A stretch of DNA of 51,713 bases, from the NCBI GenBank assembly GCA_017455975.1, contig JAFTLK010000395.1, forward strand, positions 1 through 51,713. The letters run 5' to 3'. This stretch comes from Clostridia bacterium. GTDB taxonomy: Bacteria; Bacillota; Clostridia; Oscillospirales; CAG-272. Under the pieces are notes generated by a model. The model searched no databases. It saw only the letters and a program-made list of their open reading frames with translations, and was not told the DNA's origin. The translations under genes were made by a program, and so were the position numbers. Shown here piece after piece: positions 34,198 through 41,566 of this stretch (its first letter is position 1; each line of letters starts with the position of its first letter).

Positions 34198-34923
34198 TCA
34201 GACAAGATTCTTGCGGTAGTCGCAGTTGTGCATCGGGGAACCGAAATCGTTCGGCGCTGCCCACTTGACACCGTTGTACAGGATCTTCTGGACATATTCA
34301 TTGTAGAAGGAACGGCATGCTTCGTGACCGGGCTGGAAGTAGAAGACCTTGCCGCGTCCGCGGTGGTAGGTACAGCCGGAACGGAAGACATAACCGTGTT
34401 CAAACCAGGAGATAAAGAGAAGCTCATCGGGCTGGGGAATCATGAAGGGTTCACCGTACATTTCTTCAATGCCCAGATCGACATGCTCGGGAATGCCTGC
34501 GGTGATCGGGTGAGACGGAAGCACATTCCACATGATCTCATGCTGATCGTCGCTCCAGAGCAGCTTGCCGGAGGTACCGACGATTTCACGGAACGGCTTG
34601 GACATATGCGCGGAGTGCATTGCAACAAAGCCCATACCGTCGTCGTAAACGCGCTTCTTGATTCTCTGTACCAGCGCATCATCGACATCGCCGTGTGCCA
34701 TATGACCCCACCACATGAGGACATCCGTATTGTTCAGAACATCGTCCGGCAGACCCTGATCAGGATCGTCCAGTGCCGCAATGCGCACCTCCAGATCGTC
34801 GTGCTGATCGAGGAAGTCCTTGACGCAGCCGTGAATGCCCTTGGGGTAGATCGCACGGATGGATTCCTCGGATTTTTCATGTCTGTATTCGTTCCAGACC
34901 GTAACGCGGATCTTGTTTGCCAT
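34198..34923 (-). CDS. ThuA-domain protein (trehalose utilisation family)
   Basis: VTVWNEYRHE, WWGHMAH, HSAHMSK, EEMYGEPF and FYFQPGHE motifs. Confidence 0.9.
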   Translation of the reverse strand: MANKIRVTVWNEYRHEKSEESIRAIYPKGIHGCVKDFLDQHDDLEVRIAALDDPDQGLPDDVLNNTDVLMWWGHMAHGDVDDALVQRIKKRVYDDGMGFVAMHSAHMSKPFREIVGTSGKLLWSDDQHEIMWNVLPSHPITAGIPEHVDLGIEEMYGEPFMIPQPDELLFISWFEHGYVFRSGCTYHRGRGKVFYFQPGHEACRSFYNEYVQKILYNGVKWAAPNDFGSPMHNCDYRKNLV

Positions 34924-34972: not shown

Positions 34973-35001
34973 ATTATGTCATATTCCGGGAACAAAGTCA
35001 A
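34973..35001 (-). promoter_or_regulatory. Sigma-A promoter for thuA
   Basis: Minus strand TTGACT-17 nt-CATAAT with extended -10 TG. Confidence 0.6.
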
Positions 35002-35043: not shown

Positions 35044-38000
35044 TTATGCTTTGATTTTGTAATATGCCATTGCCGCCTCAAAGATCCGCAGTTCCTTTGC
35101 ACCCGGTACATTGATGCACAGCGAATCGTCCACGCGGTCCGGATGCGTCATACGGCCCATCACGCGGCCATCGCGTGAGTAAATGCTCTCCACGGCGTAA
35201 TCGGAGCCGAACGGATTCCATGCAGGATCCATGGACGGATTGTTGTCGGCATCGACATACTGCCCGCCGATCTGTCCGCGAGCGCCGAGCTCCAGCACCA
35301 GCTCACCGGGAATCAGACAGCGTCCTGCCTTGGATGCTACCGGCAGCGTATACAGGTCTCCCGATTCGCAGAAGCGCATCCACGGGGAGGCAGCGGACAT
35401 CATCCGCACGCGCACGGGTTTGGATACAAGATGCCCGCACGGATTTTCCGCAAGTGTCAGACGGTCTGCATCCACAGTGACATCGTCACGCAGAAGCGGC
35501 GATGCCAGCAGCATGCGGAAGCCCTCGCCCAGCCCAAGCGTCAGCGTTTCATTGCGGGATCGGAACCGGCACAGCGCCTCATACAACCGCGGACGTGCAA
35601 ATACCGCACTGGCAAACCGCGCTGCAGGGTCAGTGACAGCCGCCGGAATACTGCCGTAGTCGGGATAACTGCCGCCGGGGAATGCAAGCACCTGTACCTC
35701 GTCAAGAAGCGCGGCAAACTGTTCTGCCGCCTCTGTGCAGGCGCGCTGTGTCCGACAGGAGAACAGCATACGGATCGGCTCAAAGCCGGCTTTGGCAAAC
35801 CGGGCAGCGAGCACATCCTCACCTGTGATATACGGAAGCACGGGAAGCAGTACACGGGGCTTTGGAATACTGACATGCGGACGCTCCACGGAATGTGCGG
35901 CATGCGGAAACGCTGGTACTATGGCTGCCGCAGGCTCGGACGACTTTTCTATGCCGTACAGCTTTTCCTCCGGCTTCTGCCAGACGGCCGCAAGCACGGA
36001 CAGCGGAATGCTCGCACCGCCGATCAGAATATTGGCAGTATCCTTGGTATATCCAAGCAGAACGCCGCGCATCTCCCGATCACTCTCGACAAGGAATGCA
36101 CCCGGCTTGTCCTCAAACAGCATCTTGCCAGGTATAACCGCTTCATAATTGAAGCCGAGATGATTGCCAAAGCACATGATTGCGACAGTCGCCGCAACAC
36201 CGCCGGACCCGATCGGACAGCAGGAAAGCACCGCGCCGTCTTCCTGCAGCATCTGTAAATACCGCAGAAGTCCGCGCTCGTCCTCGACATCCGGCAAATG
36301 ACTTTCGGTATAATTCGGTGTCAGAAGATAAACGCGCGATCCGGCTTTTTTGAAATCCGGTGTGATCAGCTGCTCCTGCTCGCGGACAGCCGCACCGAAA
36401 GCGATCACTGTCGGCGGAACATCACCTATTTCGGAGGTTCCGTTCATCGAATCCTTACCGCCGATGGCCGCGGCCGCATAGTCCATCTGTGCCCGGAATG
36501 CACCGAGCATTGCCGCCATCGGAACGCCGAAGCGGTCGGGATCATCCCCAACGCTCGGGAAGTATTCCTGCAGGGAGAGTACAATCTCCTTTGCCGGAAT
36601 TCCTGCTGCGGCAAACCGGCAGATGACCGACAACACCGACAGATACGCGCCGTGATAGGGGCTCCGGACAGCATAACGCGGCAGATATCCGGAACAGAAT
36701 ACAGCGCATGTATGTGTCTCCCCCATTCCCATACTGACGGACGGGAAACGGTATGCCATATATCCGGTCGGCGTCAGCATGGTCTTTCCGCACATCGGAA
36801 GCATGACGGTTCTGCCTCCCGCGGTATGGTCAAAGCGCTCGGACAGCCGCTTCTGGGATGCGACCTCCGGATGCATCATCACACGCAGATAGCGTTCCGT
36901 CAGATCTTCTCCCGTCAGATGATCCGGAATGGTACGGTACATGTTTTCTGTATCGGATGCGGGAATGTGCACCTGTACGCGCCGTTCCGCGCCGGCAGCA
37001 TCGAGAAAATCCCGGGACAGCGAAAGCACACTGTGCCCCCACCAGCAAAGCCGGACACGGCGTTCCGCCGTAATGGTACCGACAAGCGTCGCTTCGAGAT
37101 CCTCCTGTGCCGCAATCCGGCTGACCTCCGCCTGTTTTGTCGACGGGATAACAAACAGCATCCGCGCCTGGGTTTCGGAAAAAGCAATTTCATACGGGCC
37201 CATGACACTGCCGACACGGATCCGGTCGGAGACCGAGGTTGGAACACGGTCAAGATCTATGCGAACACCGTCGGCAATTTCAGCCGCGGCTACCGCAAGA
37301 CCGCCCGCGGAAATATCCTCCGCGCGCTTGACGATCTGCATCAGATCGCGTCTGCGCATCAGCCGTACCAGCGCACGCGCCGCCTGCGGATCGCCGATCT
37401 GGGAGGTATATGTCTGCCGTTCACCGCGGCGTGACGACATCGCAGGATCAGCGCGTCCGGCGGAAGCAGACAGACCGCCGCCGAGACCGTCTCGCCCCGT
37501 TTTTGCACCGACAAGCAGGATAACATCGCCCGGCAGCGGTTTTGCCGAAAGATATCCCTCCTCCGGTGCTGCTGCTGCCGAGAAGCAGACCTCCATATGC
37601 TTTGCCGCAAAGTACGGATGTATATATTCCTGCACATGACCGGTCGGAATACCGCTCTGTGCGCCGAACGCTGCAAAGCCGTCCGCCGATTCCGTACTGC
37701 GCCGCAGCGATGCGGCATATCTGTCGCGTGCATCGGTATCACCGCCGCGCAGCTCTGCCGCCGTCGGCGTTCCGACACCGGACAAGCGCATTGCCGCGAA
37801 GACCTCAGCTCTTGCGGACAGCGGATCGGCAATGGTCCCGCCGAAGCTTGAAAAAGCACCGAAGTACGGATCTTTTTCTGTCGAATAGTTGTGTGTTTCG
37901 TTTTTGAAATGCAGAAGCCACGGCACCGCCTGCTGCTCCGTCTTCTGTTTCGGATCATACGGATAGACATTGGCACGGACGGTAAAGGCATTGCGTTCGC

Positions 38001-38913
38001 CCGTCTGTGCGATGCGCGGCAGCATGCCCTCACGGGTCATATACTTTTCCGCAACGGTCGCTATGTCCATCAGAGTAATGTTCTTTGGCCGCGTGCCGTA
38101 CAGCGATTCCCTGATGTCGAGATACTGTTCAAAGGTCTGCGCAATCTCCGCATCGTCAATGGACAATGCCTGTACTGCAGTCAGAAACGAAATGTGTCTG
38201 CAATGGTCCGACCAGTATGTGTCGATCATCCGCAGTTCAAACCGTCCGGGATCGCGCTTTTCCTCCACGCGGAAATAGCTCTGGATGAAGCGCAGATCGT
38301 CGGAGGACATGCGGAAGTTCTCTTCAACGGCGAACATCGTCAGCGCTTCCTCATCCATATTCCGGAAATCGCGGATCGGCATCCAATCCTCTTCCGTTTC
38401 GCGGGAGAGCGGCGGCAGTGTTCCGGTCGTAAACAGCGGAAGCTCGGTGTTGCTGGCCGGATTGATGAGCAGACGCTTCAGCCGCGCGCGGTCGCGTACA
38501 TCGGTAATGCCGCTGACAAGAAAGACATCCGTCTGACGGAAATATAATCGTTCCTCCGTCAGTGCGTCATCTTCCGCTCCGTCATCCGTCAGCATCATAC
38601 GCAGCGCGCGTTCCGTCAGCTGCTCTGCCGGACGGCGGAACAGCGGAATGACACAGAAGCACGCAGTATCGTCCCGCTGTGCCTGTGCACGCACGCTTTC
38701 CTCATCAACTGCGCGTTCTGTCGCAGGATCAAGATAAAATGTACCGTTCAGAATCGCCTGCGGCAGCTCCCCCGGTGTATCGACGATCAGACAGCGCAGG
38801 ATGCGGACATCGGTTACGGTATGCATGCCATAATGCTCTGTCAGATGCAGAAATAACCGCTGCGCGGCATATGCATATTCACTTTTCTTTTCTACATAAA
38901 TGCGATATCGCAT
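35044..38913 (-). CDS. purL: Large-type phosphoribosylformylglycinamidine synthase homolog with altered catalytic sites
   Basis: DTYWSDHCRH, FKNETH, TGRDG, LQEYF and GGKDSM motifs, plus a C-terminal class I GATase fold. Intact 1289-aa ORF. Several canonical catalytic residues are substituted (see findings). Confidence 0.85.
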   Translation of the reverse strand: MRYRIYVEKKSEYAYAAQRLFLHLTEHYGMHTVTDVRILRCLIVDTPGELPQAILNGTFYLDPATERAVDEESVRAQAQRDDTACFCVIPLFRRPAEQLTERALRMMLTDDGAEDDALTEERLYFRQTDVFLVSGITDVRDRARLKRLLINPASNTELPLFTTGTLPPLSRETEEDWMPIRDFRNMDEEALTMFAVEENFRMSSDDLRFIQSYFRVEEKRDPGRFELRMIDTYWSDHCRHISFLTAVQALSIDDAEIAQTFEQYLDIRESLYGTRPKNITLMDIATVAEKYMTREGMLPRIAQTGERNAFTVRANVYPYDPKQKTEQQAVPWLLHFKNETHNYSTEKDPYFGAFSSFGGTIADPLSARAEVFAAMRLSGVGTPTAAELRGGDTDARDRYAASLRRSTESADGFAAFGAQSGIPTGHVQEYIHPYFAAKHMEVCFSAAAAPEEGYLSAKPLPGDVILLVGAKTGRDGLGGGLSASAGRADPAMSSRRGERQTYTSQIGDPQAARALVRLMRRRDLMQIVKRAEDISAGGLAVAAAEIADGVRIDLDRVPTSVSDRIRVGSVMGPYEIAFSETQARMLFVIPSTKQAEVSRIAAQEDLEATLVGTITAERRVRLCWWGHSVLSLSRDFLDAAGAERRVQVHIPASDTENMYRTIPDHLTGEDLTERYLRVMMHPEVASQKRLSERFDHTAGGRTVMLPMCGKTMLTPTGYMAYRFPSVSMGMGETHTCAVFCSGYLPRYAVRSPYHGAYLSVLSVICRFAAAGIPAKEIVLSLQEYFPSVGDDPDRFGVPMAAMLGAFRAQMDYAAAAIGGKDSMNGTSEIGDVPPTVIAFGAAVREQEQLITPDFKKAGSRVYLLTPNYTESHLPDVEDERGLLRYLQMLQEDGAVLSCCPIGSGGVAATVAIMCFGNHLGFNYEAVIPGKMLFEDKPGAFLVESDREMRGVLLGYTKDTANILIGGASIPLSVLAAVWQKPEEKLYGIEKSSEPAAAIVPAFPHAAHSVERPHVSIPKPRVLLPVLPYITGEDVLAARFAKAGFEPIRMLFSCRTQRACTEAAEQFAALLDEVQVLAFPGGSYPDYGSIPAAVTDPAARFASAVFARPRLYEALCRFRSRNETLTLGLGEGFRMLLASPLLRDDVTVDADRLTLAENPCGHLVSKPVRVRMMSAASPWMRFCESGDLYTLPVASKAGRCLIPGELVLELGARGQIGGQYVDADNNPSMDPAWNPFGSDYAVESIYSRDGRVMGRMTHPDRVDDSLCINVPGAKELRIFEAAMAYYKIKA

Positions 38914-38973
38914 CCGTGCGCCGCCTTTCCGGGTTGTGATTGTTGATCATTATGAATATTTCAGTTTCTTTGT

Positions 38974-40356
38974 TCAAATGAAACGCCCGATGAGTGCCAA
39001 TCCCTCTGCACCGATGATTTCGACCGGGGTAATCTCACCTGTCGGCGGCGTATCGGAGGAAACACGGACTTCAAAGAAGGTGTCGGTGTGTCCTGTAATG
39101 ATGCCGTCCCGATACGTTTCGCCAAGGAATAGAACCGGTTTACGGTTTTTGATAAGTGCTTCTGCCTGCGCCTGATAAAGTGCGGTTTCGATTTCCCGCT
39201 GTAGCGCGATCAGAGCATTGGCGCGGCGGTTTTTCTCGGCATTCTGCAGCTGCCCCGGCATCTTGTCGGCGGGTGTATTTTTTCTTCGGGAGTAGGGGAA
39301 AACGTGTATGTGCAGCAGCTGTGCTTCTTCTGCGAATGCCATTGTCTCAGCAAAATCTTCCTCTGTCTCTCCCGGGAAACCCGTCATAATATCGGTGGTG
39401 AACCGGACATCCGGAATTTTAGCTCGGATATCGGCTATGATGGCACGCACCTGGTTCATGTTGTATTTGCGCTTCATCCTGTGCAGAACGGCATCCGCGC
39501 CGCTTTGCAGAGAGAGGTGGAAATGATGGGCAAGAACCTTGAGTGCGGCCATACGCGATACAATATCCGGCTTCATATATGTCGGCTCCAGCGAACCGAG
39601 ACGGATACGAATCGGAAGCGCACCGAACGTGCGGTCAACATCTTCCAGAAGGTCGATCAGCCGATAGGAAGACAGTTCTGTGTCGCCGCTCCGCTTCCAA
39701 TCCACACCGTAAGATGCGGTTTCGATGCCGGTCAGAACGATCTCACGGTAACCGTTGGCGATCAGGTCACGCATTTCCGCAAGAACCACATCCGGACGCT
39801 TGGAAACGACCTGCCCGCGTGCATTGGGAATGGCACAGTAGGTACAGCGGTTCTCGCATCCATCCTCGATCTTGATGTACGCCCGCGTGCGTTCCAGTCC
39901 TGTGTGCTGCAGCGACATTGCCTCCATGCCAAGAGCGTCGATGTCCGGTACGTTTTGCTGTGTCTGCGGCAAGCATCTCTGCTCGATAAACGCAGCAGCA
40001 ACATCAACACAGGAGAGCTTATTACGGGAGCCGCAGACATAGATGACACCCTCGATGCCCGCAGTGCGTTCCGGCTGTGTCTGTGCCATGCATCCGGTCA
40101 CGAGTACCGCCGGACGATGTGCAGGATCCTGTCCGCGTGCCGCCGCACGGCGGATCATCTGGCACGCCTTACGGTCGGATTCCGCCGTTACCGTGCAGGT
40201 ATTGATGATATACACATCAGCATCCTCGTCAAACGGCACAATCTGAAAACCGCGTGCTGTCAGACCTTCCGCGATGGCTTCACTTTCATATTGATTGACT
40301 TTGCAGCCGAGCGTCATGATCGCAGCTTTCGGCTGTATTTTTCTGTGTTCGTTCAT
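38974..40356 (-). CDS. mtaB: tRNA t6A37 methylthiotransferase
   Basis: TLGCKVNQYESE, INTCTVT, CENRCTYC radical-SAM motif, SLEP, HLSLQSG and a TRAM-like C-terminus. Confidence 0.93.
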   Translation of the reverse strand: MNEHRKIQPKAAIMTLGCKVNQYESEAIAEGLTARGFQIVPFDEDADVYIINTCTVTAESDRKACQMIRRAAARGQDPAHRPAVLVTGCMAQTQPERTAGIEGVIYVCGSRNKLSCVDVAAAFIEQRCLPQTQQNVPDIDALGMEAMSLQHTGLERTRAYIKIEDGCENRCTYCAIPNARGQVVSKRPDVVLAEMRDLIANGYREIVLTGIETASYGVDWKRSGDTELSSYRLIDLLEDVDRTFGALPIRIRLGSLEPTYMKPDIVSRMAALKVLAHHFHLSLQSGADAVLHRMKRKYNMNQVRAIIADIRAKIPDVRFTTDIMTGFPGETEEDFAETMAFAEEAQLLHIHVFPYSRRKNTPADKMPGQLQNAEKNRRANALIALQREIETALYQAQAEALIKNRKPVLFLGETYRDGIITGHTDTFFEVRVSSDTPPTGEITPVEIIGAEGLALIGRFI

Positions 40357-40360
40357 GTAT

Positions 40361-41566
40361 TTAACCCTGTTCGTTTCCCACAAGTGCAGAAACAATAAAA
40401 CCGTCTATGTTGTTGCCGGAGATCTGATACGATCTCGCTGTTTTGGGAATCGGAATCTTTTGTCCGTCGCTTCCGTTTGACTTGACGTAATACAGACAGT
40501 AAATATCACCGTTATTGGCAGTAATATAATACCGTGTTCCGTCATAACTGTAGTCCCGGATAAAATTGATATATTCTTCGAGTGCCAGACCCATATTCTG
40601 GATCGCAAGTGCGTTTCCGATGCCGACATATCTGTAATGCCACGATTCGTAGGAAATGCGTGTCACATCTTCCTTACTTGCGGAATACCGTAAAATAAAC
40701 CCGTACTGCGAGCAGTTCTGGTCGATCCAGAAATACTCATCCTTGCCGTTGAAGGTCCACATTGCTTCATCGCCCTCGACCTCAAGATCACCCTCGTCGT
40801 ATACCGCAAGGTCCATGGCATATCCTGTATGATGCTCGCTGTACCCCGGCTTCTGTACATACTGCTCCGCATAATCGGCACCGTTGAGTTCCGCCTTGCT
40901 GTCATAGACCTGCTGCTGTTGCTTTGCATTTCGGAAGCCGCTGTTGACCATGACATTGCGGTTCTCTGTTTCTGCGTAAAACGCATCCATCATAGAATTC
41001 ATCGCCTGTATGGTTTCCATGCGCAAAAATATACTGCCGCTCGTGACTTTGTAGCTCTTTGACTTGTTTTTATATACCGAGTAAACGTCCTCTTCCTCCT
41101 CAAAGATATAAGGAACATCGAAATTGACGAGGATACAGCTGCCGCGGTGAACATCTGCTGCATTGACAGTTGCGTACTGCGTCAGATACCCTTCCCTTTC
41201 CGCATCGGTCAGATACGGTCCGTACACGGTATTTTCCGGATTCTCAAACGGTCGTCTCGTTTTATCTGAGAAGATATAATCCCAATCGATGCTTCTTACG
41301 ATCAGAAGTGACAAGGACACAAAAATCATGACGACAAGACAGACAGCAAGCCCGGAAACCGCGCCGCGTCTCTGCTTTTTTCGTTTTATATTTCTGTTTT
41401 GATGCGGATGTGTTGTTCTTGTATATGCAGGCGCATATTTCGTATCGGTCGTCGGACGTCTGTTTGTTTGTGTACTGCGCGTTTGTCCTGTGCGGCGGTT
41501 ACGCTGTGATACATTTTGATTCTGTGTCCGTGTATTTGCTGTATTTTTGTTTTGTTGATTCTGCAT
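40361..41566 (-). CDS. M15B D-alanyl-D-alanine carboxypeptidase (VanY/LdcB-like), membrane anchored
   Basis: SGFR, PGYSEHHTGYAMD (SxHxxGxAxD) and ESWHYRYVG motifs. Polar low-complexity N-terminus followed by a TM. Confidence 0.9.
   Translation of the reverse strand: MQNQQNKNTANTRTQNQNVSQRNRRTGQTRSTQTNRRPTTDTKYAPAYTRTTHPHQNRNIKRKKQRRGAVSGLAVCLVVMIFVSLSLLIVRSIDWDYIFSDKTRRPFENPENTVYGPYLTDAEREGYLTQYATVNAADVHRGSCILVNFDVPYIFEEEEDVYSVYKNKSKSYKVTSGSIFLRMETIQAMNSMMDAFYAETENRNVMVNSGFRNAKQQQQVYDSKAELNGADYAEQYVQKPGYSEHHTGYAMDLAVYDEGDLEVEGDEAMWTFNGKDEYFWIDQNCSQYGFILRYSASKEDVTRISYESWHYRYVGIGNALAIQNMGLALEEYINFIRDYSYDGTRYYITANNGDIYCLYYVKSNGSDGQKIPIPKTARSYQISGNNIDGFIVSALVGNEQG

Follow-up and report, generated by a model that had tools for sequence, protein, structure and literature searches.

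What does a bacterium keep in a PurL-like protein whose glutaminase domain has lost its catalytic cysteine, when an intact PurL is encoded elsewhere in the same genome? The question is raised by the window analysed here, a stretch of 51,713 nucleotides (contig JAFTLK010000395.1, assembly GCA_017455975.1) from a Clostridia bacterium of the order Oscillospirales (CAG-272). A PurL-like open reading frame (ORF) at positions 35044–38913 of the minus strand, on which all window features located below also lie, runs through 1289 codons in one open frame; its product of 1289 aa is referred to as P0001. We suggest, with a probability of roughly 0.6, that P0001 is a PurL pseudoenzyme: a redundant copy, linked to the gene mtaB, that selection keeps for a probably non-catalytic role.

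Fold and glutaminase site of P0001

P0001 has the layout of a large PurL: a PurS-like N-domain, a linker, A1-B1-A2-B2 and a GATase-like domain. Its Pfam matches are FGAR-AT_linker, AIRS_C and a full-length GATase_5 (E = 7.9e–36), and the glutaminase-like domain without a nucleophile covers residues ~1018–1284 (35062–35862). Against NCBIfam TIGR01857, the profile of the clostridial large formylglycinamidine ribonucleotide (FGAM) synthase, the protein scores 841.1 bits, short of the 1057 set as curated cut-off; the match spans profile positions 2–1239 and follows the domain order of that enzyme. Aligned over its full length with the canonical PurL of its own genome, P0001 is 35% identical. The AlphaFold2 model of residues 90–1289 has a predicted local distance difference test (pLDDT) score of 84 and a predicted template modelling score of 0.89. 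Foldseek aligns it with the human and Salmonella large PurLs at template modelling scores of 0.72–0.75 over ~1230–1260 columns. The glutaminase-like domain is predicted to have the flavodoxin-like alpha/beta fold (pLDDT mostly 85–94), and the model is weak solely at the C-loop and the former oxyanion loop.

The original prediction, made from the DNA letters, was that three elements of the glutaminase site had been substituted, and all three are borne out by translation and by alignment with the genome's canonical PurL. The former nucleophile elbow (35515–35535) reads GLGEGFR where canonical PurLs have GICNGFQ, with Gly1129 (GGC, 35527–35529) in the position of the nucleophile. Among the 21 aligned members of the divergent clade to which P0001 belongs, on which all motif counts below are based, Cys is replaced by Gly in 21/21, Asn by Glu in 18/21 and Gln by Arg in 18/21; in canonical PurLs the Cys is present in 68 of 69. 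The His-x-Glu of the triad has become His-Pro-Asp (35137–35145; canonical MGHSERI aligns to MTHPDRV): at 35134–35148, THPDR replaces GHSER, the triad His is kept in 19/21 members, Glu has changed to Asp in 17/21 and Arg1260 is kept. The oxyanion PGGFS reads PGGSY; the canonical PGGFSGGDEP aligns to PGGSYPDYGSIP (35644–35679), which carries an insertion of 4–6 residues. This rebuilt loop is common to 21/21 members, and pLDDT falls below 50 at model residues 996–1004. A fourth pocket motif, absent from the original list, is also lost, ASKAGRC standing in place of SHGEGRF at 35317–35337 (His to Ser in 21/21, Glu to Ala in 21/21, Phe to Cys in 20/21).

P0001 therefore has neither the Cys nucleophile nor the oxyanion loop and HGEG motif that mark a class I glutamine amidotransferase. 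Several independent substitutions had been taken as an argument against a sequencing error, and the argument is strengthened by the recurrence of the same states in 21/21 clade members, down to 48% identity. Judged from these alignments, the loss of glutaminase chemistry in the clade is real and ancient. As modelled, the scaffold is retained while the chemistry has been removed.

An intact PurL in the same genome

A search for a second intact purL had been proposed together with the original prediction, and our whole-assembly search found one on another contig of the genome (C202). It scores 1850.8 bits against the TIGR01857 cut-off of 1057, and its translation contains every canonical motif; no separate PurQ was found in the assembly. 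The C202 gene is followed by fhs (formate-tetrahydrofolate ligase), and in a congener with long contigs the canonical purL lies inside purO-purH-purD-purL-fhs. The canonical copy is seen beside the divergent one in 8 of the 9 congeners that carry the latter. In one of these (G065) both genes are on contigs of at least 129 kb, which makes mis-binning unlikely. Conversion of formylglycinamide ribonucleotide (FGAR) to FGAM would thus be carried out by the canonical fhs-linked PurL and not by P0001.

Synthetase site and the map of lost residues

To place the losses along the protein we took the alignment columns with at least 97% invariance among 69 canonical clostridial-type PurLs, 353 in all. 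The divergent clade keeps 179 of these and has lost 108, and 59 of the 108 carry a single new residue in at least 17/21 members. By domain, the lost positions number 15/23 in the N-domain, 26/75 in A1, 33/88 in B1, 24/82 in the glutamine amidotransferase (GAT) domain, 5/48 in A2 and 2/9 in B2. The A2-B2 half (35914–36993), auxiliary-ADP or structural and including GGKDSM, is the best-preserved part of the protein, with 7 of 57 canonical-invariant positions lost. The motifs WSDHCRH, TGRDG and SPYHGAY are kept in P0001 as well as GGKDSM, and the TGRDG C-loop is kept with its Gln across the clade.

Three losses fall in the synthetase site. In the motif ETHNYSTEKDPYFGAFSSFGGTIAD (37825–37899) E339, H341 and D363 are kept and the invariant Arg is kept in 0/21 members; FGAQSG (37651–37668) replaces YGNQIG, with the invariant Asn kept in 0/21; and SETQARM (37159–37179) replaces SESQERM, with the invariant Glu kept in 1/21. 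The residues concerned, R362 (GGxIRD), N418 (YGN) and E583 (SESQER), are each present in 69/69 canonical PurLs, and their equivalents are found in the Thermotoga, Thermus and human enzymes. Their replacements are small and apolar and vary within the clade (R362 to A/S/C/G, N418 to V/A/T, E583 to A/G). Eight canonical-invariant residues were chosen to represent the synthetase site: the H of WSDHC, the E and H of ETH, the R and D of GGxIRD, the N of YGN, the D of DxGAGG and the E of SESQER; P0001 keeps five of them, all but the Arg, Asn and Glu just named. These losses argue against an ammonia-dependent FGAM synthase, and the synthetase chemistry of P0001 has probably been lost too. The second His of ETHNHP, which is H, Y, F or D in the clade, was considered as a further defect and dropped because human PFAS has Phe there.

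Gate residues of the ammonia channel are preserved. In Salmonella PurL, R1263 and D657 form the gate at the mouth of the ammonia channel, and H296 has a gate role (PMC7124931). The equivalent pair R1260/D695 is kept in P0001, and its H341 corresponds to Salmonella H296 and Thermotoga H72 (PDB alignment numbering).

Distribution of the clade and selection on the gene

Searching 5.8 billion proteins with P0001 returned 25 clusters at 48–99% identity (1188–2922 bits), below which the scores fall sharply to ordinary PurLs (34–36% identity, at most 783 bits). Open frames of 1264–1343 aa occur in the 25 clusters, down to the lowest identity. The clade comes from metagenome-assembled genomes (MAGs) of uncultured Clostridia and Oscillospiraceae, recovered from the colon of yak, buffalo and water deer, from horse faeces and from the caecum of goats. 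Of the 11 genomes in the window's GTDB genus, 10 have the Cys-less copy and the remaining one is 58% complete. Among ~75 genomes from other genera in the family and order, the copy was found in G041 alone, which is described below.

We estimated the ratio of nonsynonymous (dN) to synonymous (dS) substitution rates by the Nei-Gojobori method (NG86) on codon alignments. For the whole divergent gene dN/dS is 0.06–0.2 between genomes; the least saturated pair (G062/G069) gives dN 0.029, dS 0.47 and dN/dS 0.061. The original prediction had named a value near 1 as the sign of simple decay, and the values found indicate that the gene is not decaying. The glutaminase-like domain alone has a dN/dS of 0.05–0.10 in six genome pairs, a constraint equal to that on A2 and stronger than that on the N-domain or A1. 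Purifying selection thus extends over the whole protein, the dead glutaminase domain included, which implies that it still does something. At the same time the gene evolves fast: for the same genome pairs its dN is 3–6 times that of the canonical PurL (0.139 versus 0.023 for G000/G068) and its dS 3–4 times (1.2 versus 0.35). The raised dS is accompanied by weaker codon bias in the divergent copy (effective number of codons 43.7 versus 33.3 in the canonical one). This suggests lower expression.

Gene neighbourhood and origin

Directly upstream of the PurL-like ORF lies mtaB, encoding a tRNA ms2t6A methylthiotransferase (38974–40395; TIGR01579, 387 bits versus a cut-off of 357). It is preceded by a gene for a VanY-type D,D-carboxypeptidase (40361–41566), the first of a conserved VanY-MtaB-PurL-like string. 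The 60-nt spacer between mtaB and the PurL-like gene contains a weak promoter-like site (TTGAAC-17-CATAAT, 38949–38977), and no terminator-like hairpin was found in it. Downstream, a ThuA-family gene (34198–34923) is a conserved neighbour in most relatives and has a promoter-like site of its own, a better one (TTGACT-17-TG-CATAAT, 34973–35001); past it lies a GH2 beta-galactosidase gene. No biosynthetic partner genes are conserved near the ORF, whose neighbours are mtaB, vanY, thuA and lacZ.

A same-strand purL directly behind mtaB is also seen beyond the window's genus: five further families of the order have it (G081, G079, G082, G075 and G080), as do two more genera within the window's own family (G001 and G011). 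The full set of motifs was verified in the mtaB-linked PurLs of G081 and G079, and those of G082, G080 and G011 show the canonical state in each of the motif blocks inspected in the alignment. The G075 copy has no glutaminase Cys, and that of G001 is seen as an N-terminal fragment only. We considered a functional link to mtaB on the grounds of synteny alone; it is weakened by the finding that mtaB-purL adjacency is ancestral for intact PurLs of the order. Degenerate PurLs also occur away from mtaB (P0131, P0128 and P0150, the last behind purH).

Sampled genomes have either an mtaB-linked or a pur-operon purL; both are present in the window's genus and G041 only. The pur-operon PurLs form a clade (support 100/99) to which the canonical copy of the genus belongs and the divergent clade does not, and the approximately unbiased (AU) test disfavours an origin by duplication of the pur-operon copy within the genus (p = 0.0285). 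By synteny, the most economical account is that the P0001 gene descends from the resident mtaB-linked purL, and we consider this origin probable. Within the pur-operon clade the branching departs from the GTDB families: members of six of them (f1, f5, f8, f14, f16 and f17) are intermingled, which points either to horizontal transfer of the pur operon or to a poorly resolved tree.

Degeneration of clostridial-type PurLs elsewhere

G041, which belongs to another genus of the same family, has a related locus, VanY-MtaB-PurL-like...PurL-like-LacZ/ThuA, split over two contig ends. Its degenerate PurL-like gene lies at L105 3677–5836 (contig C136) and L106 1–1317 (contig C37), on the minus strand of both, in open frames cut by the contig ends. 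The product is 25–27% identical to either copy of the window's genome, and its best matches among 1.84 billion cluster representatives are the window's clade. All motifs of both sites are gone: WSDHCRH has become WKSRASF, FKNETHNHP has become QINVNSRTC, GICNGFQ has become GVGGGFC and GHSER has become CRFET. This genome also has an intact PurL of the pur-operon type, adjoining fhs (L118).

We then surveyed the 148 cluster representatives (P0122–P0269) that best match the G041 fragment. The elbow Cys is lost in 58 of them, to Gly (45), Ser (4), Asn (3), Asp (3), Ala (2) or Glu (1). Among these the synthetase site is intact in 22, also degenerate in 16, partly degenerate in 2 and not assessable in 20 partial sequences; the reverse state, an intact glutaminase with a dead synthetase, was seen in four (P0123, P0132, P0141 and P0196). 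P0129 has the elbow GLGEGF, the same as in P0001. A single ancient Cys-less family was rejected, the FastTree tree, with its long-branch caveats, requiring at least about 10 independent losses. Under the same caveats, P0127 and P0160 group with the window's clade at 98% local support; both are degenerate PurL-like proteins encoded directly behind mtaB. In P0150 (L116, 230–5089) both sites are degenerate and the gene directly follows purH (AICARFT) in a pur-operon position, so degeneration is not confined to mtaB-linked copies.

G075 presents a different case. Its sole PurL (L086/L109, contig C26) is mtaB-linked and has a fully canonical synthetase site together with the motifs GLGGGFQ, PGTNGE, SGGSSGGGEP and SYGEGR, and no PurQ was found in the genome. 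Of its congeners, G088 (L110, C5) reads GISNGFQ, with Cys changed to Ser, and G087 (L111, C34) has the normal Cys. Judged by their motifs, the sole-copy Cys-less PurLs of G075 and G088, and not P0001, are the plausible candidates for ammonia-dependent or Ser-nucleophile enzymes.

Taken together, these proteins form a degeneration series: the intact mtaB-linked PurL; Cys-less forms with an intact synthetase (G075, G088); P0001, with both sites altered; and forms in which all motifs are gone (G041, P0127). Such a series can help to show how evolution takes apart a channelled enzyme of 140 kDa yet spares its scaffold, and which residues serve catalysis only.

Probable retention without catalysis and its alternatives

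P0001 combines two features of a pseudoenzyme, namely absence of key catalytic residues and purifying selection with an intact predicted fold. The most likely course of events is as follows. The resident mtaB-linked purL would have become redundant once a pur-operon purL was present. The redundant copy would then have lost the glutaminase nucleophile, the oxyanion loop, the glutamine-binding residues and the three invariant synthetase residues, keeping its overall fold, the A2-B2 auxiliary-nucleotide half and the inter-domain Arg-Asp pair. What remained is most likely a non-catalytic role, in which the protein would act as a regulator or scaffold by binding a ligand or another protein.

Several observations weigh against this account. 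The importance of R362, N418 and E583 is judged from their universal conservation, and H237, E339, H341, D363, D533 and the C-loop Q505 survive in the synthetase site. Half of the lost positions carry newly conserved residues, which may point to changed rather than absent catalytic activity. The clade has also gained conserved cysteines, C41 (20/21), C85 (16/21), C87 (17/21), C443 (21/21), C1159 (14/21) and C1199 (20/21), at positions that hold R, A, E, G, I and F, respectively, in canonical PurLs; one of C443, C1199 and C41 might conceivably serve as a substitute nucleophile. As to origin, a tree with the divergent clade as sister to all pur-operon PurLs is not rejected by the AU test (p = 0.655). 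The branch leading to the clade is long (~1.4 substitutions per site), and convergence in the GAT domain may be what draws it towards G075. The placement of the clade inside the mtaB-linked grade beside G075 was not relied on, given this convergence and the alternative that the AU test allows. A new metal or Fe-S site built from the gained cysteines was set aside, as they are not conserved in G041.

The alternative that survives best, though we consider it rather unlikely, is that P0001 is a neofunctionalised enzyme, in which the PurM-type ATP site acts on a substrate other than FGAR, by carbonyl activation or phosphorylation, with the GATase-like pocket, as now rebuilt, serving to bind or deliver another group. 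In favour of this are the strong purifying selection on every domain, the 59 lost positions with a new residue in at least 17/21 members, the retention of E339, H341, D363, D533 and the TGRDG C-loop, and the new conserved residues E1130, R1133 and C1199 in the old glutaminase pocket. However, three residues invariant throughout PurLs have been replaced by small apolar ones that vary within the clade, and the conserved neighbours include no biosynthetic partners. Moreover, the syntenic relatives G041 and P0127 are without essentially all active-site residues, suggesting a path that leads to a non-catalytic protein.

The original prediction offered two readings of the Cys loss, that the enzyme uses free ammonia or that the domain is now structural. 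The second agrees with the retained fold and with the constraint on the domain. The first, an ammonia-dependent FGAM synthetase with the glutaminase domain as a structural plug, appears improbable. The habitat suits it, the MAGs coming from the ammonia-rich herbivore hindgut; the channel gates R1260/D695 and H341 are kept; and related sole-copy Cys-less PurLs with an intact synthetase do exist (G075 and G088, with 22 such representatives in the survey). In P0001, however, R362, N418 and E583 are lost, and the gene lies outside the pur operon, evolves several times faster than the canonical copy and coexists, in this genome and its congeners, with an intact glutamine-dependent PurL in the pur operon. 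In addition, the syntenic relative in another genus has none of the catalytic motifs of either site in a frame that is still open. The fast evolution of the gene and the state of the MAG (412 contigs, 4.9% contamination) might be cited for a pseudogene in decay, or for an artefact of assembly or binning, but this reading is largely refuted by the long open frames in all 25 clusters, the low dN/dS, the co-detection of the canonical copy in congeners and identical motif states in independent yak, buffalo, deer, horse and goat assemblies.

Overall, a retained PurL pseudoenzyme agrees best with these observations. A more specific proposal, possible if doubtful, is that the mtaB-linked PurL-like proteins of the window's genus, G041, P0127 and P0160 constitute a conserved pseudoenzyme class with a partner-dependent role, either sensing FGAR or adenine nucleotides and thereby regulating purine flux or the canonical PurL, or working together with a presumably co-transcribed MtaB. 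If so, it is the ancestral gene copy, not the newcomer, that was retired from catalysis. There is also a practical consequence. Annotation pipelines label P0001-type proteins PurL or PurQ, and metabolic reconstructions of gut Clostridia thus count a purine enzyme that almost certainly is none.

Comparison with known systems

P0001 shares domain order, length and predicted fold with the clostridial-type large PurL (TIGR01857). It differs from it in having no Cys nucleophile or HGEG, a rebuilt oxyanion loop, a score below the cut-off, three lost invariant synthetase residues, a location outside the pur operon and a 3–6-fold higher rate of evolution. Its motifs VQ-I/V-GDP and TGRDG-x-GG-x-x-x-AS resemble those of the small PurL that works with PurQ and PurS in Bacillus and Thermotoga; unlike that system, P0001 is a fused single chain in a genome where we found no separate PurQ.

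Dead paralogues maintained by selection beside an active enzyme are known from the trypanosome AdoMetDC prozyme and plant PDX1.2, which P0001 resembles in this respect. In both of those cases the dead paralogue has been found to bind its active counterpart and to regulate it.

In the literature searched we found no description of bacterial PurL pseudoenzymes, and the cases described are viral. The gammaherpesvirus vGAT/vFGARAT tegument proteins (ORF75 family, BNRF1) are full-length PurL/PFAS homologues without the catalytic triad; they do not complement purine synthesis and, with a functional PFAS supplied by the cell, are retained for a role outside metabolism (PMC7605207). They are the closest described analogue of P0001, by analogy and not by descent (TIGR01739 match, E = 0.001). 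The viral proteins have their origin in the eukaryotic large PurL and exert their effect on host immunity, whereas P0001 is a chromosomally encoded bacterial protein of the clostridial type. Should the proposed mtaB-linked class prove real, it would give the herpesvirus vFGARAT pseudoenzymes their first counterpart in cells, and a partner or ligand, if found, would extend the concept of a PurL-derived pseudoenzyme from herpesviruses to bacteria.

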